Source: a virus. Taken from it: 64,000 nucleotides of DNA. Under the pieces are notes generated by a model that was given only the letters and a program-made list of their open reading frames with translations, did not search any database and was not told the origin of the DNA. Every line of letters starts with the position of its first letter. Within the stretch, counting starts at the first letter, position 1. Of this stretch, positions 12,154 to 31,900 are shown one piece after another. The stretch is from positions 1-64,000 of IMG/VR virus record IMGVR_UViG_3300027763_000040. One strand, written 5' to 3'. The translations under genes were made by a program, and so were the position numbers.

Positions 12154-15100
12154 TTATTTAGATTTCTTTAACTCATCAATTTCTTTTTTGAGTTCTTTAA
12201 TTGCTTCAATGAGAAGTGGTACAAGTTTATCATACTTAACTGTTAAATACTCATCACTTGCTGGAGCAGGACAAACTGCTTCTGGAAGAACTGCTTGAAC
12301 TTCTTGTGCTGATACACCTGAATGTCTTAGTGATACATCAAATCCAAGTTCTTCTCCAATTTCATTGAAGTTATAAGTAAATCCACGGAGTTGAAGTACC
12401 TTATCCAAACCATCCTTAATTGGTTCAACATTAGTTTTTAATCTTTCATCAGAAGCAAATGCGATAATATCACCAGCACTTGTAAGTCCACCACTTCCTA
12501 CTGCAGTTCCACCGTTGATTCCCCTAAACATTAAAGTATCTGAATCACCATTTCTGGTTGCAGTCATATTTTCCCTAAATCCATTGGTAATACCAGGATC
12601 TGTACTTCCAGAAACTGTTATTTTAGTTTTGTCTGGTAGGGTAACTGTAACATCACTGCTATTGTTAAATGTGGAATCGACTCCAGATCCCACAATTCTG
12701 ACTGATCTTTGGAGTTGTCCAATTAATCTATTACCTGCAGTAACATTACCAGTAGCACTAACATTACCGCTAGCACTAATATTACTAGATACTGATAGAC
12801 TACTTGATAATGTAGCAGCACCAGTAACTCCAAGTGCGCCAGATACTGATAGGCTACTTGATAATGTAGCAGCACCAGAAACGCTAAGAGTTCCTGCAAT
12901 AGTAGAAGATGTATTTGTAAGTCTTAAAATTTGATTTTCGGATCCACCTGCATTTTTAAGAATAAATATAGTTTCACCACCATTAGCAGTATTATAAATT
13001 CCCCATACCCCATCAGATCCACCAGAACTTCCAAGATCACCTTGACCCATTCCACTTGTATTGATATTCAGAGCATTTACGGTTGCTGATCCAGCAGCAA
13101 CTAAAGTCGAATTGAGTGTTGTAGCGCCATCAACTGTTAAAGATCCACCTAAATCTGTTGTCTTTGATGCGGCAACACCAAGATTTCCACTCAAATTAGT
13201 GTTGCCAACAACACTCAAAGTACCACCAAGAGTTGTAGATTTTGAAGTAGCGACACTTAAATTTCCACCAATATAAACATTCTTTGCGATTCCAGCACCA
13301 CCAGCAACTCTTAATGAACCTGCGGTGATACTTGTAGATTCGGTGGTATTATTAGCATAAAGAATTCCACCAATATTAACATTTTTTACAATTCCAGCAC
13401 CACCATCAATTTGCAAAGATCCCGTTGTTTCACTTGTAGATTCAATTGTATTATTTCCGTATATAATACCATTAACATGAATACTGCTAGAAATTCCAAC
13501 TCCACCAGCAACTATTAAAGATCCTGTTGAGGCACTTGTAGTTTCGGTGGTATTATTGGCATACACAGTTCCACCAATTTGAACATTTCTTGAGATTCCA
13601 GCTCCACCAGAAACTATTAATGACCCTGTTGAAACACTCGTAGACTGAGATGTATTTTCTGCATAAACAATGCCGCCAATATGAGTATTTTGTAAAATAC
13701 CAACTCCACCATTTACAACTAAGGCGCCACTATATCTACTGATAGAAGGTGTGACATCAATAATTTTTACTTGTTTGCTAAATGTTGTTTTTGCTTTAAC
13801 TCTAACCTGACCATTGAGTGTAAGAGGTCCATTAAACTGAGATAGAACTTGAGCAGAAACTCCACCCTCAACCAACAATCTTTCTTTAACTGTGACTTCA
13901 TCAAAGACCACACTTAATTTTGTTGGATCTTGACCAGTTACAGTTGGATTTGGAATATCATAAGAAACAACTTCTCCACTAGATGCTATGGTTTTAGTGT
14001 TTCCGCTGAATACATCACCTTTATTGTTCATTCCAGTGTAAATAACCGCACCGCAAGATCTTTCTTGTGCCTGCGAAAGAAACTCTTCTCTTTCTGTAAG
14101 AGATCTAATTTGAACTTGTGGAAGACCAGTAGAATAGTTACCAGGACCAAATCCCATGTATTCAAAAGTATGTCCAGAAGCACGTAGAATAGATGGTCTT
14201 CTAAATTCTACCGCAATTGGAGAAATTTTACGAATTAATGTACCCGCATCATGTTCTTCTTGAAGAGTGCCGAGGGATCCACGAATAACTCCAAATGTGG
14301 TTTCACTACCAGAACTGGTAATTCTCATAATTTCATTATCAAGTTGAATATAAGATCCTAATGGGAATCTTTGAGCAATACTTGATATTCCTGCTATTCT
14401 TGGTAAAACAGTAATACTAGTCTCAGTTGTAATTGAATTTACTAGTTTCAGAGTCTCTTTTGCATATAGATGCATTCCTCTCGTAGCAAGACTTTCGCTT
14501 CTCTTGTCAGAAACACCTTCATTTGCAGACATTCCATGCTTTAAGATATATCCATTTGTTGCAGAGATTGATTTATAAGTATATGTGGTAAAAGTAGTTA
14601 CTCCAGATCTTACATCTACAACATAATCTCCAAGATTATTATTTGAAGAATCGAGGATTCTAAATTTATTTCCACTAACTAATCCATGTGCCTCTGGGCA
14701 TGTAATTGTCAGAACTCCTGATGTAGAGTCGTATGATGTTGATGTAATTCTGACAGAAGGTCCAACAATAAATGCATACTGTGAAGTAAAAATTGGAGAA
14801 TCTCCAGAAGTTTTAGCAATACTAATTCTATTGTTATCTGGTATGGATGTAATTCGATAATATTGATTCGAAGAACTTGTTCTACCAACACCAGCAGAAC
14901 CTGAAATTTGAACAACATCTCCAACATTTGTGGAAATACCAGCAGTTGCTAGAGTGATATAAGCATTTGCCGCTCCACCAATAACTGTACTGTCAAAATA
15001 TAGGATATTTCCAGAACTATAACCAGATCCTGGAGCAATAATACTTGCAGAAGTTACAGAATTTCCGACACCAGAAACTGTAACTTTGGCAGTTGCACCA

Positions 15101-18100
15101 TTCCATGTGGATAGGGTATTTTCATTATAAAGTTTTACATTATAATATGTTCCTGCAGTTTTTCCACTACCACCAGTTAATGTTGAATAATTTACAACTC
15201 CTGATAAATTATGATCTTTATTAATAGTTATAGTTGCACTTGTTGAGGAAGATGAAACTGAGGAAATTCGAAGGCCCCTATTAAAATCAAGTAAAAATTT
15301 GTCGATAGTTTCTCTGGTGACACTCTTCTCAAGATCACTAGTTACAATATCTCCTACGGGAGATCTTTTTGCATATGTTACTGCTGATTCCGGATTTGAT
15401 TCATAATTATCTCTATCTAATTGTGGATATAAATCAACCGAATTTTGACTATATTTTAGATTTGTAAATTCTGTGGCAACGGCATTGCTTGCATTCAGTA
15501 AGTATAAGTGATATATTCCATTTTGTTTTCCTTGAATATAAGTTGATATTACTTCATTTCTATAGATAAAAATATTTGATTGTAAGTCATTTCTTTCATA
15601 TCTTGGAAGATTTCCACTGCGAACATTTAAATTATTTGTAAATGTTCCTATCACGTGTGAAATTCCATTGACATCAACAATGGAATATGTAAATGACATG
15701 TTATTACTGTCAACAGTAACAACTCTAAATTTGCCATTATATCCATCGGTAAAATCATCACCTCCAGGATTACTGGTATCAGTTACATACTTAACGTTAA
15801 TAATATCTCCTACCTTCAAATTGTGAGGTAATTCAGTAGTTACCGTAACATAAACGCCATCTGTTTGGCATTTTGCAATAAATCTTGGATTTTTTTGAAA
15901 ATCATAATCATTTTGAGTAATAGATGGCCTGGTAAAATCTGCATCATTTCTTACACCAGTTGAACTCGATTCTTGAAGAACAAATCCTGATTCTGGATTT
16001 TTGGAGTTTGTAAATTCTGCAGGAATTACCACTCTAACTTTATAGAGTTTTTCATCAAGTGCTCTTCCATCAGTAACTCTTTTAATATAAGACAAGTCTG
16101 TAGTTTCAGAAAGTTCCTCCACACCCAAAGTATTGAGAGCATTATAAAAAGAACTATCCTCTTCTACTTTAATATACCAATTTTCATTTACAGTGTCATA
16201 TTGAATTGGTGATCCAATGTCTCCCGCATTTTTATCAGATACTCTACTTTTAATTACGAGATTTGATCCACCATAAACTTCAAGTGCATTACCTAAAATA
16301 GCATTTGTATAAGATGCTGCTAATTGAATTTGAAGTGAATTAACTTTAATGGCATAATATAAAGTATGTTCGGTAATATTCTCTGGAAGATCACCAACTG
16401 CACTATTAATTATGACTTTTTCACCATCTTCCAATAAATTTAATGCGGTATCGAGGGTAAATGTATTTCCAGCTGGAGATCCAATTACTCGATAACTTTT
16501 TTCTGCGCTTATAAGACCAGTACCACTAGGGTCTGTCATATAAATTTTCGCATTATATTCCACACCATTATATGAGAAGTAGAGAATATCATTTTTACGA
16601 GCACCAACACGATATCCTTGAGTAAGACTTACTGGAATACCATCAGGAGCTGTGAAACCATAAAGATAAAGTCTCGAACTATCTGTCGTAGAATTGCCAT
16701 ATGATGTTGTAAGTCCAACATCTATAGATAACCATTCAATATCATCAGAATCAAATGGATTAATATCTCTTGGTGGAATTATTGATGTGATAAATGCTTT
16801 ATTATCTTTTGCAAACGCATCTTTTTTAAATCCTTCGGCGTTTAAAGAAATTTGTCCGAAGTTTGAGTTTGAGTTGGTAATAGATGCATCACCACCAGAT
16901 TGAACATCAAAATGCTTATTGAAACCAATTGCAAAAACAGAAACAATTTGAATAAATGAATCATTTTGAATTTTGATGTGACTAGATTCCCACCCGTTTC
17001 TATAAATTGCATCTTGATCTAAGTGATATACCTTAGCAGGATTAGTTTCAGAAGATCCTAAAGGAAGTGCTGCTCCCGATACAGGTTCAATATTAATTCC
17101 ATTATAAGTTCTAGTTGTTTCATCATACTTAACAAAGGCACGGTCATCCTTCTGCAGAGATACGGCAGTATATTGTGCAACAACCATGGAACGGAATCCA
17201 GATGCTTTTGATCCATCTGCCGTCATTCCATTCATTCCCCATACTGAACGCATCGAACAGTTGAAGATGTATGGAGATGCTCCAGATACTGTATCAGTTT
17301 CGACGGTTACTGTTGCTCCAGATACACTTGGATTTGCATCTAGATTAATTGGAAAACTTGCTAATAGGAATGTAAATTGAGTTGAACTTATTATTTCTTG
17401 AACTTTTGTTGATACATTATAGAATGCTTCTGAAACATTTCTAAGTTTTATTGGAGTTCCAACATTTAAATTGTGCTCAGCAGCAGTTGTTACTGTTACT
17501 CTATTTCCTGCTGTAGTTCCATTTCCAGAAAATAAATCAGTGATGTCAATGGGATCTGATGCAAATGCCCCAACAATTTCCCATTCTGGAGCTCTTTTTG
17601 AAAATCCTAATGGTTCTGCTGGGAATTTTGAGTCAATGTTTCGATAGGTATTATATGCATTTGAAACTTTACTATAATAGATATCAAGATCTGTAAGATC
17701 ATATATTGGATTAACATTTACACCATCAGCATATTCGAATACTGTTAGTTTATGGTGTGAAAATGTTGGAGTTGATTTATATGTATCAGTAAAATAAGTT
17801 GGATTTGTATAAACTAATCCGGTTTCATCTCCGTCAAATATAGATAATTGCCAAAAATAACATGCACCAGTAATTCTAAAGATTGCGGAATATGGTACAG
17901 AAGAATCTGTAGGATTTGGAACATATTTTGGTCTTAATTTTGTCTTTCTGAGGTCAAGACCAACAATCGAAGTACCTCTGGGTACTATAACTCCACCATT
18001 AATACTATTAAATCTATGGAGAATATTTTCTGGATCTGTTAAATCAAATGAAGAATTTAATTCTAAGGATAATACTTGAGCAGCAGGAACTCCCACTCCA

Positions 18101-18405
18101 CCTGTTGTGGGCACAGCATATGCAACTCCTCCATTATCATAAATGGCATAACCAGGTCTGTTATCAATTAAATGTTCGCCAGGAAATAATAAGATTGTTG
18201 TTTTCTCGGTAATATCATTATTATAACCTCTTAAGTAGGAAAATCTTGCAGATTCTAAAAGTGCTCTTTGAACAGTTTTGAATGGTTGTGCAAGTGAATT
18301 TCCTTGATTAGTGACTGAATCAGTGGCGTCAAGGTCATTTGGATTTACATAAAGAATACGACCTTCGGTATTCTTAATAAAATTCTCTAGCTTATTAAGA
18401 GGCAT
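12154..18405 (-). CDS. Large tail fibre/virion protein with C-terminal intramolecular chaperone (peptidase S74)
   Basis: 2083 aa. Cyanophage-type N-terminus GRILYVNPNDLDATDS, repeated ST.TGSL.V.GG.GI units, and C-terminal SDERLKTN...YDKLVPLLIEAIKEL. Confidence 0.85.
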   Translation of the reverse strand: MPLNKLENFIKNTEGRILYVNPNDLDATDSVTNQGNSLAQPFKTVQRALLESARFSYLRGYNNDITEKTTILLFPGEHLIDNRPGYAIYDNGGVAYAVPTTGGVGVPAAQVLSLELNSSFDLTDPENILHRFNSINGGVIVPRGTSIVGLDLRKTKLRPKYVPNPTDSSVPYSAIFRITGACYFWQLSIFDGDETGLVYTNPTYFTDTYKSTPTFSHHKLTVFEYADGVNVNPIYDLTDLDIYYSKVSNAYNTYRNIDSKFPAEPLGFSKRAPEWEIVGAFASDPIDITDLFSGNGTTAGNRVTVTTAAEHNLNVGTPIKLRNVSEAFYNVSTKVQEIISSTQFTFLLASFPINLDANPSVSGATVTVETDTVSGASPYIFNCSMRSVWGMNGMTADGSKASGFRSMVVAQYTAVSLQKDDRAFVKYDETTRTYNGINIEPVSGAALPLGSSETNPAKVYHLDQDAIYRNGWESSHIKIQNDSFIQIVSVFAIGFNKHFDVQSGGDASITNSNSNFGQISLNAEGFKKDAFAKDNKAFITSIIPPRDINPFDSDDIEWLSIDVGLTTSYGNSTTDSSRLYLYGFTAPDGIPVSLTQGYRVGARKNDILYFSYNGVEYNAKIYMTDPSGTGLISAEKSYRVIGSPAGNTFTLDTALNLLEDGEKVIINSAVGDLPENITEHTLYYAIKVNSLQIQLAASYTNAILGNALEVYGGSNLVIKSRVSDKNAGDIGSPIQYDTVNENWYIKVEEDSSFYNALNTLGVEELSETTDLSYIKRVTDGRALDEKLYKVRVVIPAEFTNSKNPESGFVLQESSSTGVRNDADFTRPSITQNDYDFQKNPRFIAKCQTDGVYVTVTTELPHNLKVGDIINVKYVTDTSNPGGDDFTDGYNGKFRVVTVDSNNMSFTYSIVDVNGISHVIGTFTNNLNVRSGNLPRYERNDLQSNIFIYRNEVISTYIQGKQNGIYHLYLLNASNAVATEFTNLKYSQNSVDLYPQLDRDNYESNPESAVTYAKRSPVGDIVTSDLEKSVTRETIDKFLLDFNRGLRISSVSSSSTSATITINKDHNLSGVVNYSTLTGGSGKTAGTYYNVKLYNENTLSTWNGATAKVTVSGVGNSVTSASIIAPGSGYSSGNILYFDSTVIGGAANAYITLATAGISTNVGDVVQISGSAGVGRTSSSNQYYRITSIPDNNRISIAKTSGDSPIFTSQYAFIVGPSVRITSTSYDSTSGVLTITCPEAHGLVSGNKFRILDSSNNNLGDYVVDVRSGVTTFTTYTYKSISATNGYILKHGMSANEGVSDKRSESLATRGMHLYAKETLKLVNSITTETSITVLPRIAGISSIAQRFPLGSYIQLDNEIMRITSSGSETTFGVIRGSLGTLQEEHDAGTLIRKISPIAVEFRRPSILRASGHTFEYMGFGPGNYSTGLPQVQIRSLTEREEFLSQAQERSCGAVIYTGMNNKGDVFSGNTKTIASSGEVVSYDIPNPTVTGQDPTKLSVVFDEVTVKERLLVEGGVSAQVLSQFNGPLTLNGQVRVKAKTTFSKQVKIIDVTPSISRYSGALVVNGGVGILQNTHIGGIVYAENTSQSTSVSTGSLIVSGGAGISRNVQIGGTVYANNTTETTSASTGSLIVAGGVGISSSIHVNGIIYGNNTIESTSETTGSLQIDGGAGIVKNVNIGGILYANNTTESTSITAGSLRVAGGAGIAKNVYIGGNLSVATSKSTTLGGTLSVVGNTNLSGNLGVAASKTTDLGGSLTVDGATTLNSTLVAAGSATVNALNINTSGMGQGDLGSSGGSDGVWGIYNTANGGETIFILKNAGGSENQILRLTNTSSTIAGTLSVSGAATLSSSLSVSGALGVTGAATLSSSLSVSSNISASGNVSATGNVTAGNRLIGQLQRSVRIVGSGVDSTFNNSSDVTVTLPDKTKITVSGSTDPGITNGFRENMTATRNGDSDTLMFRGINGGTAVGSGGLTSAGDIIAFASDERLKTNVEPIKDGLDKVLQLRGFTYNFNEIGEELGFDVSLRHSGVSAQEVQAVLPEAVCPAPASDEYLTVKYDKLVPLLIEAIKELKKEIDELKKSK

Positions 18406-18766: not shown

Positions 18767-19231
18767 TTATTTTTTGTTTTTACCCCTATAAGTATCAGTC
18801 TGTGCGTGACAATTGGGGCACAGGATACGAAGGTTTTCTAAACGATTATCGTGATGGTTGCCGTTTATGTGATCTAATTCTATAGGTGTTGGTTGATTAT
18901 TCCATTCAGATATACCACAGCACTCACACTTATGTTCTTTGAGACCTTCTGTAATTAATCTTTTTTTAAGTTTATGTGATTGATGATGAGAGTTTTCAGT
19001 TAAGTAGTATTCTATTGGTCTTTTAGGTCCAAGTGTTTTTCCTTTACTCCAACCTTGCCCATTAGCACCATCAGCAAGACTAATGCCAAGTTTTTCTATT
19101 CTTTGTTGGGCAACTTTGTAATTACCACCTGCTTCTTTTAATCCAAGTTTTGATAATACTTGTCTTACGCTAGTAGATGTTTTTACTGCTTCAATAAATT
19201 GATTATCAGTGTAAGTTCTGGGTTTTCCCAT
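18767..19231 (-). CDS. Free-standing HNH endonuclease (putative homing endonuclease)
   Basis: CECC...ELDHINGNHHDNRLENLRILCPNCH, with a helical N-terminal domain that may bind DNA. Confidence 0.9.
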   Translation of the reverse strand: MGKPRTYTDNQFIEAVKTSTSVRQVLSKLGLKEAGGNYKVAQQRIEKLGISLADGANGQGWSKGKTLGPKRPIEYYLTENSHHQSHKLKKRLITEGLKEHKCECCGISEWNNQPTPIELDHINGNHHDNRLENLRILCPNCHAQTDTYRGKNKK

Positions 19232-19240
19232 AATAGTAAC

Positions 19241-19272
19241 GGCAAACTCTATTATTATTTATAAAATTTGCC
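19241..19272 (-). promoter_or_regulatory. Late promoter TATAAATA (19256-19263) inside a 12-bp RNA hairpin upstream of the HNH gene
   Basis: GGCAAATTTTAT-AAATAATA-ATAGAGTTTGCC, ending 9 nt before the HNH ATG. Confidence 0.7.
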
Positions 19273-19279
19273 TTTTAAG

Positions 19280-19562
19280 TGCGAGTAGGGAGACTTGAAC
19301 TCCCACGGGCAATGCCCAACAGATTTTCTTACCACTATAGTTTTCACTACCCTTTCGGTTTGTGGTCTGGACTATACCTTCACCATACCTTTCGGTTTAG
19401 GTGTTCCCCGTCTAGTCTCTACACCTTCAAGATTTCTCTTGCTTGGCTCGGTATTGCCATTTTACAGGTTTCACCGAATTTGAGGAATTACACTCATAAA
19501 GTTTCCTAAATGAGGCTCAATTTTCATAAGTCTGGTGTGTCTACCGATTCCACCATACTCGC
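19280..19562 (-). tRNA. trnL: tRNA-Leu(UAA) interrupted by an intron; exons 19562-19528 and 19327-19280
   Basis: 5' exon GCGAGTATGGTGGAATCGGTAGACACACCAGACTT and 3' exon AAAATCTGTTGGGCATTGCCCGTGGGAGTTCAAGTCTCCCTACTCGCA. Perfect 7-bp acceptor stem, long variable arm, spliced anticodon loop CU-UAA-AA. Confidence 0.95.
19328..19527 (-). ncRNA. Group I intron (IC3-like), 200 nt, no ORF
   Basis: Follows exon U and ends in G. Guide GAG pairs with exon CUU. Core elements: P AAATTCGGTGAAACC, Q AATACCGAGCC, R GTAGAGACTAGACGG, S AAGGTATAGTCC; P7 is GACTA/TAGTC. Confidence 0.93.
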
Positions 19563-19572
19563 TTGTGAGACT

Positions 19573-19601
19573 ATTATAACTCAAAGAATCATAATAGTCA
19601 A
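19573..19601 (-). promoter_or_regulatory. Sigma70-type promoter directly upstream of tRNA-Leu
   Basis: TTGACT-17 nt-TATAAT, overlapping a 14-bp inverted repeat (GACTATTATGATTC/GAGTTATAATAGTC). Confidence 0.7.
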
Positions 19602-19602
19602 G

Positions 19603-19676
19603 TGCTCCTTGTCGGGATCGAACCGACCTTAGCCGAATTATGAGTTCGGTGCTTTCAACCAGAGAGCTAAAGGAGC
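19603..19676 (-). tRNA. tRNA with CAU anticodon, probably Ile2 (lysidine-modified); elongator Met not excluded
   Basis: GCTCCTT/AAGGAGC acceptor stem, CCGAA-CTCATAA-TTCGG anticodon arm, GGTTCGATCCC T arm. C4-G69 and C5-G68 pairs are TilS-type determinants. Confidence 0.85.
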
Positions 19677-19706
19677 ATTCTCTATTCGCAAATAACGAAT
19701 AGCAAA

Positions 19707-19794
19707 TAGTCGCCCAGGGTATCGAACCCTGCCAAAGGCCCTAATCTGGGGCAAAGGACTTATAAGATCCCTCTGAACACCTGTTCTGACGACC
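19707..19794 (-). tRNA. Atypical tRNA-like RNA with UAU anticodon (nominally Ile)
   Basis: GGTCGTC/GGCGACT-A acceptor stem, CAGGG-TTCGATA-CCCTG T arm, CTTATAA loop. D-loop is only 4 nt and the variable arm is long. Confidence 0.7.
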
Positions 19795-19811: not shown

Positions 19812-19985
19812 CTACTGAGCTTCGTTATTCTCCTCGGTGTGTATTCGTATAAGGTCGTCATCTGCGGGCATCATCACTGCTGCCTGCCCGTTTTCGTTGA
19901 CGATACCTAAATGTTCTCCATTTTCAACTCTTTCCACAAGTTCGTCGAATCTTTCTTGAAACTCTTCCACTGTAAAAACTTCCAT
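19812..19985 (-). CDS. 57-aa protein resembling the Phd/YefM antitoxin N-terminal fold, missed by the ORF track
   Basis: MEVFTVEEFQERFDELVERVENGEHLGIVNENGQAAVMMP... follows the Phd pattern of helices plus a beta hairpin. Confidence 0.65.
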   Translation of the reverse strand: MEVFTVEEFQERFDELVERVENGEHLGIVNENGQAAVMMPADDDLIRIHTEENNEAQ

Positions 19986-20258: not shown

Positions 20259-20822
20259 TTAAATACTAAAGTAAAAATAAGCATTAGCGCCATATGTGCT
20301 CGCAAAAAGTCCATTTCCACCATTTATAGAACCATCTGTTGTGTATTGCACTTGTCCAGAATTAGAAAGTGATGCTGGATTAAATGGAGATGTTGTATAA
20401 TATTGATTACTTACATTACCCGAAACTCTAAAAATTCGATTACCATTAAATGACATGCTATAAAAATCAAAAAATAACTCAGATGCGCCATAAATTCCAC
20501 TAACTCCAAGAAATCCAGTTCTGAAGATATAAAAAATATCATTCAGTATATTATAATTTGTTGTTGATAGTGGAGTAATATTGGTTGTTTGAATCACCCC
20601 ATCGCCTGAAAAAGTTGTACCAGGATAAGTCACTGGAAATCTGATAGATTTTGTTCCGTTGGGGTCATTTAATACTTCAATACTATATGTGGTAGAAGAT
20701 GCGCCGAGGAAAGTATAAGTATTTCCAGAAGTTGTACCTAATGAAAAATCCACAGAACTTTGAACTATTCCATCAACTAATGAATAACCACTAAAAAAAA
20801 ACATCTGTTGAATAGTTGTCAT
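20259..20822 (-). CDS. Fibre-associated hypothetical protein
   Basis: 187 aa, S/T/G/N/F-rich, ATGA-coupled to the fibre gene. Confidence 0.65.
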   Translation of the reverse strand: MTTIQQMFFFSGYSLVDGIVQSSVDFSLGTTSGNTYTFLGASSTTYSIEVLNDPNGTKSIRFPVTYPGTTFSGDGVIQTTNITPLSTTNYNILNDIFYIFRTGFLGVSGIYGASELFFDFYSMSFNGNRIFRVSGNVSNQYYTTSPFNPASLSNSGQVQYTTDGSINGGNGLFASTYGANAYFYFSI

Positions 20823-23800
20823 GATAATCCTGCTCCAGAAATTACAAATGTATTAGGTGTAACGACACAAAGAACAGTACATACACCTCTTTGTGCCAAT
20901 ATTCTATCTGCATTTATTGAAGTTCCGGCAAGATACATTGTTACTCCTGATCGAGAAATTGTTTGTGATGATGCAGAATTATTATAGATTGTAATTGCAT
21001 CACCTGCACTGAACACACCAGATGGAACAGTAACTCCACCTGTGGTGGTATTAATCAATTCTCCAACATCTTCTATTACAAGAGTATAACTAGCAGATTT
21101 CGCATTATTTGGAAGTTTTCTAATATTTCCACCTACATCTGCAACTATTGTTGATGTTAATGTTCCAGTTGATGGATTGTATGTGAGTTTACTTGATGAT
21201 GTTCTAAAATCAGCACTAGATGAAGATGTTGAAATTGTTGGATAATAAGTTGAATTTGTACTGGTATCATCAGATAATAATGCAGTAGATTTTCCAACAG
21301 CAGAAGTAACCGCCCAGGTACGGTAATTGGAACCAGCAGAATAAGTTTGAGTACTATATCTTAAATAAACTCCATTATAATATTTTGCCGCTGCTGGAAC
21401 TGTTGCGGATACCAATGTCCAAACATTAGAAGTATAACTTCCAACAGTAACAGTACCTAAAATATTCCAGATTGAATTGTCATAAGAATATTCCAAATAT
21501 AGATCATCATAAGCAGTATCTCCCCATCCACCACCACCTCGGTTTACATAAAATTGAATAATATCGACTGCTGCAAGACAAATCTTAGATCTGTTGGTTA
21601 TTCTTCTGGGAGATCCATACCATCCAGGATAAAGATCCGCTTCACCAAATACTACAATTGAAGTTGTGGATGGAACTTGAGTAGCTGAATTCATTCCAGA
21701 TACTGATCCAACAGTAGTTAATCTTCCCCCAGATGTAGGAGTTGGAAGATCCACCGTATCTTGATTTAATAAATCAATTACACTAAAACTACTTGGACTA
21801 TATGATTGATCAAATTCATTAATTGTTGTTACTATTGAAGTAACAGCCCAAGTACGATAAACATTTGCAGTACCATAAGAACCATTATTAAATCTTAAAA
21901 ATACACCATTATAATACTTTGCCGCTGCAGGAATTACAACTTCTCTTAGTGCCCATACGTTACTGAATACCTCTGTATATCCATCATAACTAGCAACGCC
22001 TACAGTATAAAGTGTAGTCCAACCACTAGTCCCATTAATAGAATATTCCAAGTATAACGGATCGTATGCTATATCTCCCCATCCACCACCACCTCTATTT
22101 ACATAGAAATATAAAGTTTTTAGTCCTGCAAGAAAAACCTTATTTTTAATAGTGACTGTTCTTGTAGAACTAATATATCCATTACCATCAAAAACTATAA
22201 TTGGAGTTGTGGATGGAACTTGAGTAGCTACTGCCATTCCAGTTACTGATCCAACAGTCGTTAATCTGGTTCCTGGTTGAGGTGTTGGTAGATCAAAATT
22301 ATTTGAAGATGATAAATCTAATAGTGCAAGAGAAGTAGATCCTCCAGATGAACCAGTAGATCCTGCTGCACCATCTAAATCAAATGTTATGGAAGTAACA
22401 GCCCAAGTACGATAAACACTTGCAGTACCATAATAACCATTATTAAATCTTAAAAAGACGCCATTATAATACTTTGCCGCAGCTGGAACTGTAATACTCA
22501 ATAATGTCCATACATTACTATCTTGAATATCTCCATCATCAATCGTCCATAAAGTAGTCCAACTAGAACCGTCAATAGAATATTGTAAATATAAAGGATC
22601 GTATGCTATATCTCCCCATCCACCACCACCTTTATTCACATAGAAATAAACTTTACTTACTGATGTTAGAAAAACCTTATTCTTAGTAGTGACTGTTCTT
22701 GTTGAATTATTGTAACCATTACCATCAAAAACTATAATTGGAGTCGTGGATGGAACTTCAGTTCTTGAATTCATTCCAGATACTGATCCAACAGTCGTTA
22801 ATCTGGTTCCTGGTTGAGGTGTTGGTAAATCAAAATTATTTGAAGATGATAAATCTAATAGTGCAAGAGAAGTAGATCCTCCGGATGATGCTCCTCCAGA
22901 TGATCCTGGAATAGAAAAAGATGCTACTATGGAAGTAACAGCCCAAGTACGATAAACAGTTGCAGTACCATAAGAACCATTATTAAATCTTAAAAATACA
23001 CCATTATAATACTTTGCCGCAGCTGGAACTGTAATACTCAATAATGTCCATACATTACTATCTTGAATATCTCCATCATCAATCGTCCATAAAGTAGTCC
23101 AACCACTAGTCCCATTAATAGAATATTCCAAGTATAAAGGATCGTATGCTATATCTCCCCATCCACCACCACCTTTATTCACATAGAAATAAATTTTATC
23201 TACAGTAACAAAATATACTTTATTTGGGGTGGTAACTGTTCTTGTACTACTATATATACCATTACCATCAAAAACTGCAATTGGAGTTGTGCCTGGAACT
23301 TCAGTTCTTGTATTCATTCCAGTTACTGATCCAACAGTCGTTAATCTGGTTCCAGAATTATTGGGATATGTTGGCAATATTGCTGTATTTGATGTTGATA
23401 AATCAAAAACTGCAAATGAGTTTGATCCACTACTTGATGAAGATCCGCCAGAAGCACCCAATTGATAAATTAGTGATGTAACTGCCCAAGTATCATTTCC
23501 AGAACTTGGAGATGTGGATTGGGCAAATCTTAAAAAGACGCCATTATAATATTGAGAACCTGTAAAATTACTAAGTATAATTTCTCGTTGTGTCCATACA
23601 TTACTAGATAATACCGAATAATCTACAGAATCTATAGTAGTCCAACTAGAACCATTAATCGAATATTGTAAATTTATTGCATCAAAAGGAGTATCTCCCC
23701 ATCCACCACCGCCTCGGTTTATATAATAAAATAACTTAGTTACTGATGTTAAATAAACTTTATTAATATTTGTTAAAGTTCTAGCACCAGTGCCGTCAAA

Positions 23801-25531
23801 AACTGCAATTGAAGTCGTGCCTGGAACTTGAGTATCTACATTTATTCCAGTTACTGATCCAACAGTTGTGAGTCTCGCACCTGCCCCTACAGTTAATGTT
23901 CCAGATACAGAAGTATCCATTAAAGCAAGACTTCCACCACTTCCACTAGTGGCGACTGAAGCAGAAGCACCTTGAAGTCCTTGGGTATTCTGAGTACCTT
24001 GAGCACCTGCTCCACCTTGAGCACCAGAACCGCCAGTAAATCCTTGAGCACCTTGACGACCTTGAGCACCTTGTGATCCTACACTACCTTGAGCGCCTGT
24101 AGAACCAGTTTGTCCAGATACTCCTTGAAGACCTTGGTTACCTTGAGCACCTTGACGACCTTGAGTACCTTGATCACCTACAGCACCTTGAGCACCCGAG
24201 AATCCACTAAGACCTTGAATACCTTGGCGACCTTGAGTACCTTGGAAACCTTGTGGCCCTTGAATACCTTGAGCGCCTTGATTTCCTGCAGTTCCTTGAA
24301 TACCTTGAGCACCTTGATCTCCTTTAATACCCGCCTGTCCAGTCAATCCTTGAGTACCTTGATAACCTTGCGATCCTATAGATCCTTGAGTACCTTGATT
24401 TGCTCTTCCTTGAATACCTTGAGCTCCTTGGAACCCAGCAGATCCTTGAGCACCTTGTGAACCAACACCTTGCAATCCTTGAATACCTTGAATTCCTTGA
24501 TTACCTTGATTACCTTGAGTACCTTGGAAATTACTCAAAAATCCTTGAAGACCTTGAATACCTTGATTACCTTGCGTACTTTGAATTCCTTGAGCACCTT
24601 GACCAACAAATTCACCAGAAAGTCCTTGAGCACCTTGAGTTCCTTGAGCACCTTGAGTTCCTTGAGCACCTTGTCCAACAAATAAACCAGAAACGCCTTG
24701 AATACCTTGACGACCTTGAGTACCTTGAGTACCTTGATCACCCACAGTTCCTTGACTCCCCACAGAACCAACTGATCCACTAATACCCTGAAATCCTTGT
24801 GATCCTATGGATCCTTGAATACCTTGATTTGATAATCCTTGAGTACCCTGATTTCCTTGAATACCCTGAAATCCTTGAGATCCTATAGATCCCTGAGTAC
24901 CTTGATTTGATAATCCCTGAGTACCTTGAGTACCTTGATTTCCTTGAGTACCCTGAGATCCTTGAGATCCTTGAGTACTCTGATTTCCTTGAACACCTTG
25001 ATTTCCTTGACGACCTTGAGTACCTTGAGCACCTTGACCAACAAATTCTCCACTTATACCCTGATTACCCTGATTACCCTGATTACCTTGATTACCCTGA
25101 GTCCCTTGAGTACCTTGGGCACCTTGAGAACCTTGACGACCTTGAGTACCCTGAGTACCCTGAGTACCTTGAGTACCCTGAGTACCTTGAGTACCTTGGA
25201 AATTACTTAAAAATCCTTGAACACCTTGAGCACCCTGAGTACCTTGAGCACCCTGAGTACCTTGAGCACCCTGAGTACCAGAAGGTCCAGTAGAACCAAT
25301 TCCAGAAAGACTACTTGTTTTTATCCAATATCTTTTTCCAATTTCTCCCGCTACTGCACCTAAAAGGTATTGATCTCCTACTGGAAAAGGATTTGCAACA
25401 ACAGATGATACACCAACTATTGGATCTCCTAAATCTGGTTCTGCTTGCTCTAATCCCAGATATTGGTAACGATCCGATGTAATACCAGTTTGTCCAAATC
25501 TTTTTACTCTTCCAGAATTATATTTTGTCAT
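20819..25531 (-). CDS. Collagen-like fibre protein with five tandem reelin-like beta-sandwich domains
   Basis: About 440 aa of Gly-X-Gln triplets, then five repeats of about 180 aa (LEYS.NG..W.TL...W......P...FLRF....TWAVTS), then a C-terminal fibre domain. Confidence 0.8.
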   Translation of the reverse strand: MTKYNSGRVKRFGQTGITSDRYQYLGLEQAEPDLGDPIVGVSSVVANPFPVGDQYLLGAVAGEIGKRYWIKTSSLSGIGSTGPSGTQGAQGTQGAQGTQGAQGVQGFLSNFQGTQGTQGTQGTQGTQGTQGRQGSQGAQGTQGTQGNQGNQGNQGNQGISGEFVGQGAQGTQGRQGNQGVQGNQSTQGSQGSQGTQGNQGTQGTQGLSNQGTQGSIGSQGFQGIQGNQGTQGLSNQGIQGSIGSQGFQGISGSVGSVGSQGTVGDQGTQGTQGRQGIQGVSGLFVGQGAQGTQGAQGTQGAQGLSGEFVGQGAQGIQSTQGNQGIQGLQGFLSNFQGTQGNQGNQGIQGIQGLQGVGSQGAQGSAGFQGAQGIQGRANQGTQGSIGSQGYQGTQGLTGQAGIKGDQGAQGIQGTAGNQGAQGIQGPQGFQGTQGRQGIQGLSGFSGAQGAVGDQGTQGRQGAQGNQGLQGVSGQTGSTGAQGSVGSQGAQGRQGAQGFTGGSGAQGGAGAQGTQNTQGLQGASASVATSGSGGSLALMDTSVSGTLTVGAGARLTTVGSVTGINVDTQVPGTTSIAVFDGTGARTLTNINKVYLTSVTKLFYYINRGGGGWGDTPFDAINLQYSINGSSWTTIDSVDYSVLSSNVWTQREIILSNFTGSQYYNGVFLRFAQSTSPSSGNDTWAVTSLIYQLGASGGSSSSSGSNSFAVFDLSTSNTAILPTYPNNSGTRLTTVGSVTGMNTRTEVPGTTPIAVFDGNGIYSSTRTVTTPNKVYFVTVDKIYFYVNKGGGGWGDIAYDPLYLEYSINGTSGWTTLWTIDDGDIQDSNVWTLLSITVPAAAKYYNGVFLRFNNGSYGTATVYRTWAVTSIVASFSIPGSSGGASSGGSTSLALLDLSSSNNFDLPTPQPGTRLTTVGSVSGMNSRTEVPSTTPIIVFDGNGYNNSTRTVTTKNKVFLTSVSKVYFYVNKGGGGWGDIAYDPLYLQYSIDGSSWTTLWTIDDGDIQDSNVWTLLSITVPAAAKYYNGVFLRFNNGYYGTASVYRTWAVTSITFDLDGAAGSTGSSGGSTSLALLDLSSSNNFDLPTPQPGTRLTTVGSVTGMAVATQVPSTTPIIVFDGNGYISSTRTVTIKNKVFLAGLKTLYFYVNRGGGGWGDIAYDPLYLEYSINGTSGWTTLYTVGVASYDGYTEVFSNVWALREVVIPAAAKYYNGVFLRFNNGSYGTANVYRTWAVTSIVTTINEFDQSYSPSSFSVIDLLNQDTVDLPTPTSGGRLTTVGSVSGMNSATQVPSTTSIVVFGEADLYPGWYGSPRRITNRSKICLAAVDIIQFYVNRGGGGWGDTAYDDLYLEYSYDNSIWNILGTVTVGSYTSNVWTLVSATVPAAAKYYNGVYLRYSTQTYSAGSNYRTWAVTSAVGKSTALLSDDTSTNSTYYPTISTSSSSADFRTSSSKLTYNPSTGTLTSTIVADVGGNIRKLPNNAKSASYTLVIEDVGELINTTTGGVTVPSGVFSAGDAITIYNNSASSQTISRSGVTMYLAGTSINADRILAQRGVCTVLCVVTPNTFVISGAGLS
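21290..23930. repeat. Five imperfect tandem repeats of about 540 bp
   Basis: Near-identical blocks recur at 540-bp spacing, e.g. gaagtaacagcccaagtacgataaac near 21836, 22392 and 22932 and tctccccatccaccacc in all five units. Boundaries are approximate. Confidence 0.85.
23970..25285. repeat. 9-bp-period coding repeat (Gly-X-Gln)
   Basis: Tandem ccttgagta / ccttgagca / ccttgatta units. Confidence 0.9.
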
Positions 25532-25903: not shown

Positions 25904-28900
25904 TTAACTCAATGCAATGATTAGGGGTGTTACTGTATTTAACAGACTTTGACTGAACGCCCTTCCAGAAATAGTACCAGTTAATTGATTAATTACAACG
26001 CCATCACCAATTTGGAAGTTACCGCCTTGATTTGTACTGGTATAAACAACTTGTCCACCATTACGTTTATCAGTTTCATTTTCCTGAATAGTAACTCCAC
26101 CCAATGCGGGTTTTGCAGTATTAATATCTGTACCAGATCCTACCCATTCAAGTGAAATTGATGTTGCAATCTGAAGGCTGATTCTTGAGAAATAAACTGT
26201 CGTACCAGGATCAACACTATTATTTAGATTCTGTGTCAGAATAACAGTTGAGATGCCAGAAACAGGAAGTGTTGCAGTTTGAATCGTATAATATAAAGGA
26301 TATAATACTGCTGTTGCATCACCACCAACTCCAGATCCTCCAGGAGCATTGGAAATTGTTACATTAGGAACTGTTGAATATTGACTTCCAGTACTAATAA
26401 CATCAATGGAAGTTATAATACCATTTTCATCCACATTTGCGGATGCTTCTGCACGAATTCCACTAGGACCTTCTGGAAAATCAATTGTCACATTTGGTGG
26501 ATTAAGTTGACTATATCCACTTCCACCATTAGTAACTTGAAGAGAATTTATTTGATAATATAATTCTCCAAAATAAATTGCCTGACCATCATATGGACGT
26601 TGCCCGCCCAATCCAGAAATTGTCACAGTATCAGTTTCAATTTCAGCACTATTAACTACTTCACCAGTATAACGGTAAATTGATTTTGTCTCATAATCTC
26701 CAACACCATCAGATACTAGTCCATAGTTTCCGAATGAACAGTTGGAGTTTGTAATGTCGCATTGTCCACCAGACTTAGTAAAGATGCCAATATCATCGCA
26801 AATTGTAAAGATCGAAACTAACTGAGAATATGCACCATTTGTAATTGAGCATCCAATTCCACCTTGATTGTATTGTGTATAAGAGTCAACACTCATGGTC
26901 CCAGTTACACCAATATCTTCTGCCTCTCCAGGTTCTGCGTTAAATCCATCAACTCTCATTCCAATACTATCTGGAATAAAGTTTGTACAGTTTCTAATAT
27001 AAGGACCTTGAGTAATAGGACCAACACCCTTAGAATATGGAGGAAGAACTACGCCACCAGTAACATACTTATGTGCCATTGGTGCTGTACCAACGTTAAC
27101 AGTAAATGTACTTCCAGTGCCAACAACACTTAATACTCTAAAATCATATCCATTATTTCCTGTTGGATAGATTGTAGTTGTTCCAGAACCACTTAAACAA
27201 GAAAACTCCAAATCACGAATGGTTACAAAATCTCCAACTCTCACATTCAAATTTGGAGCAGTGATTGTGGTAATTCCAGTTAAATTATTATATGATGCAG
27301 TGGTAACACCTACTGAACGATTTATAATATATCCTCCAGAAACATATGTATGTGGAATAGTACTAATTCCAGTATAGATGTCAAATGTCCCATTTGGATA
27401 GACTTTTTCAATATAAAACTCATATCCATATCTTCCAGATGGGAATAATTGAGTCGATGTTGGTCCACCAGATGAACAAGAGAAAAGTAAATCACGGACT
27501 TCGATAATATCACCCTTTTTCAAAGAGAATCCTTGTGATGTAATTGTTGTTTTACCACTCTTTTCATCATAAATTGCATTTTGAATTTTTCTAATCGAAT
27601 CAAATCCAGATCCCCTATTTCCGGGATATGTGGTATTAAATCCAACATATGCAAATGCTGTAGATCCAAATCCTACAATTGAAGTTACAATGCCAACACA
27701 AGATTTTAATGCTGATGCAACATCGGCACACGAAGCAATAACATCATTAAATCCGGTTTTAGGATCAACTTGCATTGCAAGATCTTTGATTTGTGTGTAT
27801 TGATTTTGGAAGTTTGTGTATTTTTGAATTGTTCCACCCGAAACATAAGTATGTGGTAAGGTTGATTGTCCAACTACAACTTCAAATGTGTTCACTCCAA
27901 CTATAGATTTAACTGGGAAAATATACCCAAGATTTCCACTTGGATATAATAATGTTCCAGGTCCAGAAGGGCAAGTGAATCCAAGACCAGCAATCTTTAC
28001 TGGATCATTTTTAGTCAATCCGTGGTTTATTGCGGTTATAGTTGTAATACCTGTATTTGCATCATACACAGCATTTACCACAGTGGTTCCCAATCCAACA
28101 GGATAACCTCCCCAGGAGCAGTTATTAATTACGGCTCGGGCAATATTGAATGAATAATTAAATGTTGAGATTGTTTGTTGAACTTCTCCAGGATTATGAA
28201 GAATTTGTGGAATTAGATTCCAATTAGAATCATAATAAGCTTTACCTGCCGCAACCGATCTAGAGTTTCCACCTCTTGTAATATCATGAATTATACACTT
28301 CCATACCGATCTAACATCATCTGAACAATCTCCACTTTCAAGTACAACACCATAACGAACTGATGGTGCAGTTAATGTACTTGCTGCCCCAATCATATTG
28401 GTCACAATACCGACAAGTTGGCGAATAGTTGTTCCGACACCAACACATCCACCATTTACAATAATTACCGATGCATCTTTGATTTGGGAAACACTACCAA
28501 TTCCAGATTGATATGAAATTGGAGGAGTATAATTATTAATCACATGAGTTGCAATTCCTGCAGCATAATTTAGTGCAGCAATTGTTGCTCTTTGAGTTGC
28601 AATACCAGTAATATGAATTAGACCACCAGAACTATTGAAATATGAATATCCCGCACCAATTGATTTGCGATTACTGTTTGCCTTAAGATCATAAGAAACA
28701 GCATTCATAATGCTGACAACATCTTCCCTACAGTTTGTATAATCTCCGCTTGATAATGTAAATCCATATCCAACAGGTGATGTTAAGAATCCAACTGCTT
28801 CTGCAGAAATATAATTTAAGTTCTTATCAATTAGTCTTGCAGCATCTTGCTCTCTGTGACTGCCTGCAAATCCACTAAATCCACTTGTTAAGAATCCAAC

Positions 28901-31900
28901 AGATTCTTTTGCAATATAATCTAAATTCAAACGAATCATTCTTGCTGCATCAAAGAATCTATCTGTCGCCACACCAGATAGTGGTTGTAAAGAAACGACA
29001 GCAGATCCACTGGTCATATTTGGTCCAATGAAACTTATATTAGTAATGTGGCATCCATTGTTTACATAGAATAGATCCTGATCTGGATATTGTGGTGTTA
29101 CTACACAGTTACGAAGTTCTGTTCCCTGTACTGATACTGTTTTTGCCAGAACAATTGGATTATTTTCAACATATACTCCCGGAAATACTTTAATTGTGTC
29201 TCCAAACAAAGCAACAGAGGCAGCTGATTTGATAGTTCTTTTTGGATAATTTTCTGCTAATCCAGTATTATCATCATTACCAGTTTGAGAAACATAAATT
29301 GTTTTTCCAATTGGACGATATGCATCAACAGTTACCCTACCTTTTCCTGGATTTTGTGTTGAGGTAATATCAATACCAATACCAGGTACTAATTGCGTTA
29401 CAATTCCAACTAGATTTACACCACTACCAAAATATTCCGTGGAAGTTGTTGTTCCTACAACTGTTAAAGTATTTGTTACAATACTTGTTCCAATACCAAC
29501 ACTACCGGATGATGGATTATAAACTAATTTTTTAGAAGAAACATATTCATTATTTGTTGTTCCACTTGTTTGTTTTACGAATGTTAGATAATCAACTTCA
29601 TTGGTAGTATTATTGTCTTCTAATACTATGACTCCAGAACCAGGAATTCCTTGAAGACCTTGGTTTCCTTGAGTACCTTGGCGTCCTTGAGTACCTTGAG
29701 TACCTTGAGTACCTTGAGGACCTTGAAAAGATGCTGCACCCTGAAGTCCTTGATTAGCCTGAAGACCTTGGCGACCTTGAGTACCTTGAACACCTTGATT
29801 ACCCTGAGTACCTTGAACACCTTGATTACCCTGAGTACCTTGAGTACCCTGAGTCCCTTGAAAAGATGCTGCACCCTGAAGTCCTTGATTACCTTGTGTA
29901 CCTTGTGTACCTTGATTACCTTGAGTTCCTTGGAAATTACTTAAAAATCCTTGAACACCTTGGTTTCCTTGAGTGCCTTGAGTGCCTTGAGCACTTTGTT
30001 GTCCTTGAGTGCCTTGAAATCCCTGATTACCTTGTGTACCTTGTGTACCTTGATTACCTTGAGTACCTTGATTACCTTGAGTACCTTGGAAATTACTTAA
30101 AAATCCTTGAACACCTTGGTTTCCTTGAGTACCCTGGTCACCTTGAGTACCTTGGAATCCTTGAGTACCTTGAGCACCTTGAGTACCTTGGAAATTACTT
30201 AATGGTCCTTGAAGTCCTTGGCGACCTTGATTACCTTGCGTACCTTGATTACCTTGCGTACCTTGATTACCTTGAGTTCCTTGACGACCCTGATTTCCTT
30301 GAGTACCTTGAGCACCAAGGCCTTGATTACCTTGAAGTCCCTGAGTACCTTGGAAATCACTTAATGGTCCTTGAAGTCCTTGAGTTCCTTGGAAATTACT
30401 TAATGTACCTTGATTTCCTTGAGTACCCTGGCGCCCTTGAGCACCCTGAGTACCTTGAGTACCTTGGGCACCTTGAGTTCCTTGGAAATTACTTAAAAAT
30501 CCTTGAACACCTTGACGACCTTGGGGACCTTGAATACCTTGAGCACTTTGTTGACCTTGAGTACCTTGAGTACCTTGGAAATTACTTAATGTACCTTGGT
30601 TTCCTTGAGCACCTTGGTTTCCTTGAGCACCTTGAGTACCCTGGGACCCTTGAAAAGATGCTGCACCCTGAAGTCCTTGATTACCTAATCCTTGAGTACC
30701 TTGAGTACCTTGATCACCTTGAGTACCTTGATTTCCTTGAGTACCTTGGAATCCTTGATTTCCTTGTAGACCCTGGCGACCTTGATTTCCTTGTAGACCC
30801 TGGCGACCTTGGTTTCCTTGAGTACCTTGATTTCCTTGATTTCCTTGAAGACCTTGATTTCCTTGATTTCCTTGATTTCCTTGAAGACCTTGGTTTCCTT
30901 GATTACCTTGAGTACCCTGGTCACCTTGAGTACCTTGGTTTCCTTGATTTCCTTGAGTACCTTGGCGCCCCTGGCGTCCCTGAGTACCTTGAGTACCCTG
31001 GTCACCTTGAGTACCTTGGTTTCCTTGATTACCTTGGGTGCCCTGGTCACCTTGAGTACCTTGGTTTCCTTGATTACCCTGGCGACCTTGAGTACCTTGA
31101 GCACTTTGTTGACCTTGAAGACCTTGATTTCCTTGAATACCTTGATTGGAAAGTCCTTGAGTACCTTGGGCGCCCACGCGCCCTTGAGCAGCTTGAGTAC
31201 CCTGGCGACCCTGATTACCTTGGTTTCCCTGATTACCTTGGACACCTTGATCACCTTGAGTACCTTGGCGACCTTGAGTACCTTGGAAATTACTTAATGG
31301 TCCCTGAAGTCCTTGGCGACCTTGAGTACCTTGAAATCCTTGGCGACCTTGAGTACCTTGAGCACCCTGAGTACCCTGAAAATTACTCAAAAATCCCTGA
31401 ACACCTTGATTTCCTTGAAGTCCTTGAGTACTTTGGTTTCCTTGAGTACCTTGGAAATCACTTAATGGTCCTTGAAGTCCTTGAAGTCCTTGAGTGCCTT
31501 GACGACCTTGAAGACCTTGAAGACCTTGAAGACCTTGATTACCTTGAGTACCTTGGAAATCACTTAATGGTCCTTGAAGACCTTGAAGACCTTGAAGACC
31601 TTGAAGACCTTGATTGCCTTGGTTTCCTTGAGTTCCTTGGTTTCCTTGAGTGCCTTGACGACCTTGAAGTCCTTGATTACCTTGAAGACCTTGAAGACCT
31701 TGATTACCTTGAGTACCTTGGAAATCACTTAATGGTCCTTGAACACCTTGAACACCTTGAGTGCCCTGAGCACCTTGACGACCTTGAGTACCTTGGTCAC
31801 CTTGAGTGCCTTGATTACCTTGAGAACCAAAACCACCAGTAAATCCTTGAGCACCTTGACGACCTTGAGTACCTTGGACACCTTGATCACCTTGAGTACC

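Follow-up and report, generated by a model that had tools for sequence, protein, structure and literature searches.

A group I intron in a cyanophage tRNA-Leu(UAA) gene, its phage-borne relatives and a neighbouring gene for a predicted HNH endonuclease

The first 64,000 nucleotides of the IMG/VR virus record IMGVR_UViG_3300027763_000040 (hereafter the window) contain a tRNA-Leu(UAA) gene on the minus strand that, by sequence criteria, is split by a genuine group I intron of the IC3 "Leu.3Ug" type. The locus is very probably a functional tRNA-Leu(UAA) gene of a freshwater cyanophage, carrying a 200-nt intron, devoid of an open reading frame (ORF), between anticodon nucleotides U34 and A35. An earlier interpretation made from the letters alone (the sequence-only reading) had proposed a group I intron in a phage tRNA-Leu(UAA) gene at 19280-19562; this is borne out, with the gene lying on the minus strand and spanning 19279-19562. 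The 5′ exon (19528-19562, 35 nt) comprises nucleotides 1-34 of the tRNA and ends in ..CCAGACUU, the last base being U34. The intron (19328-19527, 200 nt), which is supported by Rfam RF00028, by a covariance model built here (R1) and by intronless alleles, starts with AUGAAAAUUGAG and ends in ..GGUAAG, with omega-G at 19328. The 3′ exon (19279-19327, 49 nt) starts with AAAAUCUG and runs from A35 onward through a long variable arm and the T arm to the discriminator A.

The position of the insertion could be fixed from alleles that lack it. The intronless alleles of another IMG/VR contig (L232), with identical exons, and of the cultured cyanophage S-TIM5, with near-identical exons, give ungapped alignments across GACTT^AAAATC, and the sequence missing from them is therefore exactly the 200 nt from 19328 to 19527. 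Removal of these nucleotides in silico leaves a class II tRNA-Leu(taa) of 84 nt, as called by ARAGORN. Both observations place the insertion point between U34 and A35, that is, at nucleotides 34/35 of tRNA-Leu(UAA), and agree with the earlier description of a 200-nt intron that ends in G and splits the tRNA after the first anticodon base. With default settings, ARAGORN missed the split gene and called tRNA-Met as the sole tRNA. With introns enabled, as the sequence-only reading had suggested, the program correctly bracketed the split gene, but the intron was misplaced at the eukaryote-style position 37/38 and the gene was named tRNA-Tyr(ata). This placement was rejected because the intronless alleles and the rule of U at −1 and omega-G fix the site at 34/35.

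A match to the Rfam group I intron model (RF00028, Intron_gpI) covers 19346-19537 on the minus strand and the full model (1-253), with a score of 62.1 bits, above the gathering score of 50, and an E value of 2.4e-13; the covariance-model search proposed earlier thus supports the assignment. R1, the covariance model derived from an alignment of the phage introns, scores the 19328-19527 intron at 259.6 bits. R1 also detects the homologous introns of two other loci (L001 and L003), which went unreported by Rfam at its gathering threshold.

A secondary structure model from P1 to P9, including the P3/P7 pseudoknot, was drawn by hand on the window sequence and tested against 39 distinct homologues aligned with MAFFT. 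Standard pairs occupy 96% of the alignment cells, and 27 of the 59 pairs show compensatory changes on both sides. The observed pairing and compensation values were reached in none of 500 shuffled controls, and upon sliding the 3′ partners out of register pairing fell to 29%-40%, with at most 7 compensated pairs. The minimum free energy fold recovers every nested helix together with the anticodon stem formed between the two exons (z = −2.83). All of the elements named in the sequence-only reading, namely the guide GAG, P2 with its GAAA loop, P4, P7, the P8 receptor and the P9 hairpins, are present.

P1 (19516-19530) pairs the exon CUU and intron A1 with the guide UGAG (C-G, U-A, U.G and A-U) across a 7-nt loop. 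Its pairs are invariant or compensated in the 39 sequences, and the U.G pair at the splice site is invariant in every one of them. The P2 hairpin (19493-19514) is closed by a GAAA tetraloop at 19502-19505, and eight of its nine pairs have changed on both sides. Within the catalytic core (P3-P8, 19369-19487), which the covariation test supports, P3 (19482-19487/19404-19409) covaries in four of six pairs, P4 (UUCGGUG/UACCGAG, 19472-19478/19447-19453) is invariant and P6 (19424-19446), with a GAAA loop, covaries. P5 is reduced to a stub, as had been noticed earlier; its 2 bp (19467-19468/19457-19458) and 8-nt loop are invariant across the family. Most of P7 (GACUA/UAGUC, 19413-19419/19369-19374) never varies, and one pair covaries. 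P8 (19381-19403) carries a motif resembling the 11-nt receptor (CCUAAA...UAUGG) and a GAAA loop, with covariation in four of seven pairs. The P9 domain (19331-19366) consists of an outer 5-bp helix around two GAAA-capped hairpins, P9a and P9b. Compensation is observed in all four pairs of P9b and in one pair of outer P9, and covariation also supports the P9a helix. All of these elements lie on the minus strand. Across the 39 homologues U-1 and omega-G are invariant, and the base preceding omega-G is A, C or U.

The intron belongs to a family and is not a singleton, since a 34-nt pattern over P4-P5-P6 retrieved 79 IMG/VR contigs and blastn found unannotated introns at the same site of tRNA-Leu(UAA) in two huge phages in GenBank, LR756501.1 (735 kb) and LR756511.1 (595 kb). 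The host genes are class II tRNA-Leu(UAA) and, in the same syntenic slot, a class I tRNA (short variable loop) with anticodon UAA, the two tRNA(UAA) scaffolds being unrelated; other tRNAs, provisionally called by ARAGORN as Ser-UGA, Asn-GUU and Ile-UAU, are also hosts. Phage protein genes harbour relatives as well, there only ~160 nt long. A single syntenic slot occurs in three allelic states: without intron and without the HNH gene described below (L232), with the intron alone (L080 and L006) and with both (the window). A tree built for 28 loci from 870 bp of downstream flank requires at least four changes in intron state. The phage-borne intron lineage comes and goes among close relatives.

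Several members of the family or its host genes merit separate mention. The class I tRNA(UAA), of 73-75 nt with discriminator A, replaces the class II tRNA-Leu after tRNA-Met in L015, L023, L053, L066 and others. In related cyanophages it is often interrupted by the same intron, and an intronless copy is present, unannotated, in the cultured phage S-SRM01 (NC_070963.1, 33604-33676; L335:305-377). One viral contig carries two family introns in two tRNA genes, provisionally Ser-UGA and Asn-GUU (L024:3474-3713 and L024:2218-2427, both minus strand). The relatives in protein genes (L011:10371-10547, L018:7212-7388, L045:687-862 and L059:468-639) measure ~156-161 nt and have a single P9 hairpin; the host of one of them matches the capsid gene of pelagiphage HTVC120P. 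They may rank among the unusually small group I ribozymes found in nature. The window intron had been described earlier as a very small natural ribozyme, which is too strong: at 200 nt it lies marginally below the sampled bacterial ranges of 202-312 nt, and it is the ~160-nt relatives that are truly small.

A free-standing gene for a predicted HNH endonuclease of 154 residues (18767-19231, minus strand) begins 48 nt downstream of tRNA-Leu. Its product matches phrog_10822, "HNH endonuclease", with an E value of 4.7e-47, and its translation shows the motif DH..N...N..LCPNCH. By synteny, the gene belongs to a sharply bounded cassette of ~498 bp (~18775-19272) that is missing from alleles lacking the HNH gene. 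Introns of this type had been described in the sequence-only reading as usually without an endonuclease, which is not supported here: the HNH gene adjoins the tRNA, and homologues of it are encoded within the introns of relatives. In LR756511.1 (L003:1529-2228), an HNH ORF with 44% identity over 151 residues to the window protein lies inside the tRNA-Leu(UAA) intron, in P6, and in L052 a homologous ORF occupies the 5′ part of the intron. A further homologue is found ~100 nt upstream of one tRNA intron in L024.

Of 58 other intron-bearing loci that could be assessed, 18 (19 of 59 with the window included) have an HNH homologue, 50%-88% identical and on the same strand, that starts 72-110 nt past the 3′ end of the intron; both tRNA scaffolds are represented among them. 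Downstream of the intronless junction, none was found in the 99 contigs with enough downstream sequence, among at least 120 contigs with the junction. The Fisher test gives p ~9e-10, which overstates the association since the contigs are related. The flank tree of 28 loci requires at least five changes in HNH state, and every HNH-bearing locus on it also has the intron (6 of 18 loci with the intron versus 0 of 10 without).

The 154-residue HNH protein is probably the homing partner of the intron, and collaborative homing by the two is the explanation we moderately favour. According to this scheme, when two phages share a cell the free-standing HNH enzyme of one would cut the intronless tRNA(UAA) allele of the other, the intron and the nuclease gene would be copied into the cut allele during repair, and the intron would shield its carrier by disrupting the target site of the nuclease. 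The distribution of intron and HNH gene is the pattern that collaborative homing predicts. The mechanism has precedents in the psbA intron with F-CphI and in T4 mobE. As in the window, the psbA system combines an ORF-less intron of a cyanomyovirus with an adjoining free-standing homing-type nuclease, each of which may be present or absent among relatives; it differs in having a protein gene as host and a nuclease of another family, whereas here a tRNA gene and a predicted HNH enzyme are involved. The psbA system is that of Zeng, Bonocora and Shub (2009), as cited in PMC3984707 and PMC3037559, and homing in trans by T4 mobE/I-TevIII is treated in PMC2790892.

The partnership has evidence against it. 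The Pfam scores of the ORF fall under the cut-offs (HNH_3, 20.4 versus 24.8 bits; HNH, 19.0 versus 21.4 bits), the association counts share phylogeny, and in the syntenic subset the difference reaches only p ~0.06. It is conceivable, if the less probable option, that the HNH protein is an independent free-standing homing endonuclease with another target, practising intronless homing like T4 SegB, and that it occurs alongside the intron through linkage or common descent. That 40 of the 58 other intron-bearing loci have no HNH gene, that unrelated phages commonly have members of the family at sites remote from tRNA introns and that the syntenic subset amounts to just 6 of 18 against 0 of 10 would all be expected for such an enzyme. 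The complete absence from the 99 intronless alleles is not readily explained in this way, nor are the positions of HNH-bearing loci at five or more places on the flank tree, in each case together with the intron, the association with both tRNA scaffolds and the intron-encoded homologues in L003 and L052. SegB itself (reference list of PMC3984707; PMC13096335) is a phage nuclease whose gene lies in a tRNA cluster and which biases the inheritance of the region; unlike the pair described here, it is of the GIY-YIG family and acts without any intron.

A more far-reaching version of collaborative homing, to which we assign a low probability, would make the intron and HNH gene an attack-and-immunity pair between phages, perhaps also directed against the host. 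The nuclease would destroy tRNA(UAA) genes that lack the intron in phages sharing the cell, and possibly the host's tRNA-Leu gene, the carrier copy being uncuttable, and the phage lineage, moving among tRNA scaffolds, other tRNAs and protein genes, would be a reservoir that repeatedly seeds bacterial tRNA introns. If true, this would bear on the "ancient versus mobile" debate over the tRNA-Leu intron.

Splicing is expected to follow the standard group I scheme, from which the pathway is inferred. In the pre-tRNA the exon CUU would pair with the internal guide GAG, creating the U.G wobble at the splice site, and the anticodon stem built from both exons would keep their ends close. Attack after U34 would come from an exogenous guanosine in the P7 binding site. 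The terminal G at 19328 would then take the place of the guanosine, and ligation of the exons would release an 84-nt tRNA reading UUA and UUG. Contigs of four metatranscriptome runs (X15, X16, X19 and X20) were aligned to 19150-19750. They cover the intron alone and, in one case, also class I tRNA exons: a 520-nt contig from a freshwater metatranscriptome (run X19, record 6) contains the intron, with 6 differences and 2 gaps, joined to class I tRNA(UAA) exons, and represents either an unspliced precursor or DNA carry-over.

Two points limit the reading of the locus as a functional, self-splicing gene. No spliced joint was seen in the contigs of the four runs, in which intron-bearing contigs were present; these contigs are neutral on splicing, since DNA carry-over is possible and short tRNAs rarely assemble. 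The second point is structural. The Azoarcus ribozyme is held by two clamps, L2-P8 and L9-P5; the phage intron has the L2 GAAA loop and the CCUAAA..UAUGG motif in P8, which may form the first, and its P5 has no receptor. Because P5 is a 2-bp stub lacking an Azoarcus-type L9 receptor, the autonomous folding of the intron might be weaker than that of its bacterial relatives. An alternative is that the intron, though real, is a poor self-splicer which needs a phage or host protein to fold, the P5 stub having removed a peripheral tetraloop-receptor contact. The invariance of the short P5 and its 8-nt loop across the family and the presence of a single canonical receptor, in P8, are compatible with such a dependence. 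We nevertheless regard it as unlikely, as P5 is just as short (16 nt) in the tRNA-Leu introns of acidobacteria, the P8 receptor and the GAAA loop of L2 are retained, all core helices are conserved and compensated, and the intron contains no maturase-like ORF.

Still less probable is a decayed, relic intron in a tRNA pseudogene. The absence of a spliced junction from the RNA contigs would suit a relic, yet 27 pairs are compensated and U-1, omega-G, P4 and P7 are invariant across the 39 distinct sequences, and the exons are identical to those of the intronless allele L232. Moreover, the source IMG/VR record (98,873 bp, ~47% complete) has two tRNA genes in total, of which this is the sole tRNA-Leu gene, and its use of the corresponding codons is heavy: in the long ORFs of this AT-rich genome UUA accounts for 30% and UUG for 12.5% of Leu codons, together ~42%. 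The set of two tRNAs and the UUA/UUG use would fit a phage that supplies its own tRNA for AT-rich codons.

The relationship of the phage introns to those of bacteria was addressed with R1, with a maximum likelihood (ML) tree and by pairwise identity, the bacterial sample comprising at least 120 loci from a P7-pattern scan of GTDB genomes. The phage copies hosted by tRNA(UAA) score 180-270 bits with R1 and bacterial IC3 introns 70-175 bits. In 151 evenly drawn cyanobacterial genomes, 37 of which gave a match, the maximum was 145 bits, and most of the searched genomes of 1.6-2.9 Mb (picocyanobacterial-sized) were without an R1 match. The ML tree was computed from introns with the exon flanks removed (98 rows, 187 columns). 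It unites 26 of 27 phage rows and one bacterium of unknown phylum in one group (support 83/82). The cyanobacterial tRNA-Leu introns (14 copies and one of unknown origin) form a clade with support of 100/99 that contains no phage row. The core of the window intron has a median identity of 90% to other phage tRNA(UAA) copies; values for bacterial Leu introns are 67% (65%-70%) in cyanobacteria, 71% (up to 76%) in alphaproteobacteria and 73% in acidobacteria.

These comparisons show that the phage introns are a lineage distinct from the cyanobacterial tRNA-Leu introns, as the sequence-only reading had held of the host trnL introns. Weighing against a firm view of the lineage are the moderate support of 83/82 for the phage group, a tree backbone without resolution and the bias that arises from drawing both the phage and the bacterial samples by sequence patterns. 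Recent capture together with the tRNA-Leu(UAA) gene of a cyanobacterial host, which would make the intron nothing other than the host's classical trnL intron, is effectively ruled out by the tree and the R1 scores: the insertion site and ribozyme class are shared with the trnL intron and the 5′ end is trnL-like, but the window intron lies outside the 100/99 clade, is far closer to other phage tRNA(UAA) copies (90% median) than to cyanobacterial ones (65%-70%), and exceeds the best cyanobacterial R1 score in a search of 151 genomes, most of the small ones among them having no match.

The likeness to the cyanobacterial and plastid tRNA-Leu(UAA) intron, the IC3 "Leu.3Ug" of Williams (2020; 10.1101/2020.01.27.920355), extends to the gene, the insertion point CUU/..g/AAAA, U-1, omega-G and the core helices, and cyanobacterial copies are found by the phage-built R1 at 50-150 bits. 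The phage copy differs in its position outside the clade, in its length (200 nt versus a median of 255 nt), in the P5 stub, in the adjacent HNH gene and in the presence of HNH homologues inside related copies. Beyond cyanobacteria, group I introns at 34/35 of tRNA-Leu(UAA) were observed in GTDB loci (L085-L204) of Alpha- and Betaproteobacteria, Acidobacteriota, Bacteroidota, Chloroflexota, Verrucomicrobiota and Bdellovibrionota. The survey of Williams (2020), which covers bacteria and archaea only, agrees on the wide occurrence of tRNA-Leu(UAA) introns outside cyanobacteria. Three loci from Omnitrophota and unclassified bacteria (L143, L153 and L172) fell near the phage copies in a quick tree; only L153 stays there in the careful tree.

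The core had also been described as Azoarcus-like. The P7 region of the Azoarcus intron is probably near-identical to that of the phage intron. In the comparison, Azoarcus was represented by four tRNA-Ile2(CAU) introns of betaproteobacteria as stand-ins. Core identity of the window intron to this Ile2 class is 72%, higher than the 67% for cyanobacterial copies, and to that extent the description holds; it is not specific, as proteobacterial and acidobacterial Leu introns reach 71%-76%. A closer relationship of the core to Azoarcus is thus at best weakly true. The four stand-ins form a clade of their own (100/99) that contains no phage row, and the short P5 is common to the phage introns and the acidobacterial tRNA-Leu introns. 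The resemblance to the intron of Azoarcus pre-tRNA-Ile(CAU) (IC3, ~205 nt; PMC13168695) is that of compact IC3 ribozymes lodged in a tRNA anticodon loop, with an L2 GAAA loop and an 11-nt-type P8 receptor. The Azoarcus intron interrupts tRNA-Ile after nucleotide 36, whereas the phage intron interrupts tRNA-Leu at 34/35 and has a P9 with two hairpins.

The ribozyme architecture is that of an already known class, IC3 "Leu.3Ug"; more noteworthy are the phage-borne mobile lineage and its association with a nuclease. The review by Hausner et al. (2014; PMC3984707) places all phage group I introns then known in protein-coding genes, despite the many tRNA genes of phages, and the preprint of Devoto et al. 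(10.1101/356790) calls introns in phage tRNAs previously unreported. The introns of Lak megaphage tRNAs described there as "enigmatic" likewise interrupt the anticodon region; they are short and not classed as group I, whereas the window intron is a complete ribozyme that exceeds the cut-off of Rfam. The open-access literature yielded no account of a group I intron in a tRNA gene of a phage. Public records in GenBank and IMG/VR already contain sequences of the family, without annotation.

A classical tRNA-type ribozyme is common in huge phages and in cyanophages that have not been cultured; close relatives gain and lose it, and it is tied to an HNH family. It offers a tractable natural system for homing into tRNA genes and a series of very compact ribozymes, of 200 nt in the window and ~160 nt in protein genes of related phages. 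It is also a candidate for the vector behind the patchy occurrence of bacterial tRNA introns. Because standard finders miss or mislabel intron-split genes, phage tRNA repertoires are under-counted.

The virus is a T4-like cyanomyovirus, with PHROG matches to baseplate hub, tail and tail-fibre proteins in the window and DNA similarity to the Synechococcus phages S-SRM01, S-SCSM1 and S-SKS1. These genes, and synteny to S-TIM5 and S-SRM01, confirm the phage origin that the sequence-only reading had assumed. The gene order of a Phd-like ORF, tRNA-Met and tRNA-Leu is common to the window and S-TIM5. Thirteen DNA runs, mostly freshwater or lake metagenomes, contain 50% or more of the words sampled from the window. 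The Phd-like ORF (19812-19985, minus strand), which lies upstream of the tRNAs, encodes 57 residues with an N-terminus resembling Phd/YefM antitoxins (29.1 bits, just below the Pfam cut-off); it is syntenic with the "Phd-AT" of S-TIM5, and no toxin partner is evident.

The same phage has a second group I intron outside the window, at 96753-96996 on the minus strand (locus L004; Rfam score 72.7 bits). It interrupts psbA between ..MHER and NAHNFPLDLA, a type of site known from cyanophage S-PM2. Within the window, three giant ORFs on the minus strand, of 2139 (25904-32323), 1570 (20819-25531) and 2083 (12154-18405) residues, are probably tail fibres. The 2139- and 1570-residue products contain many collagen triple-helix repeats, the latter also Reelin subrepeat-B domains, and the 2083-residue product ends in an S74 intramolecular chaperone domain.

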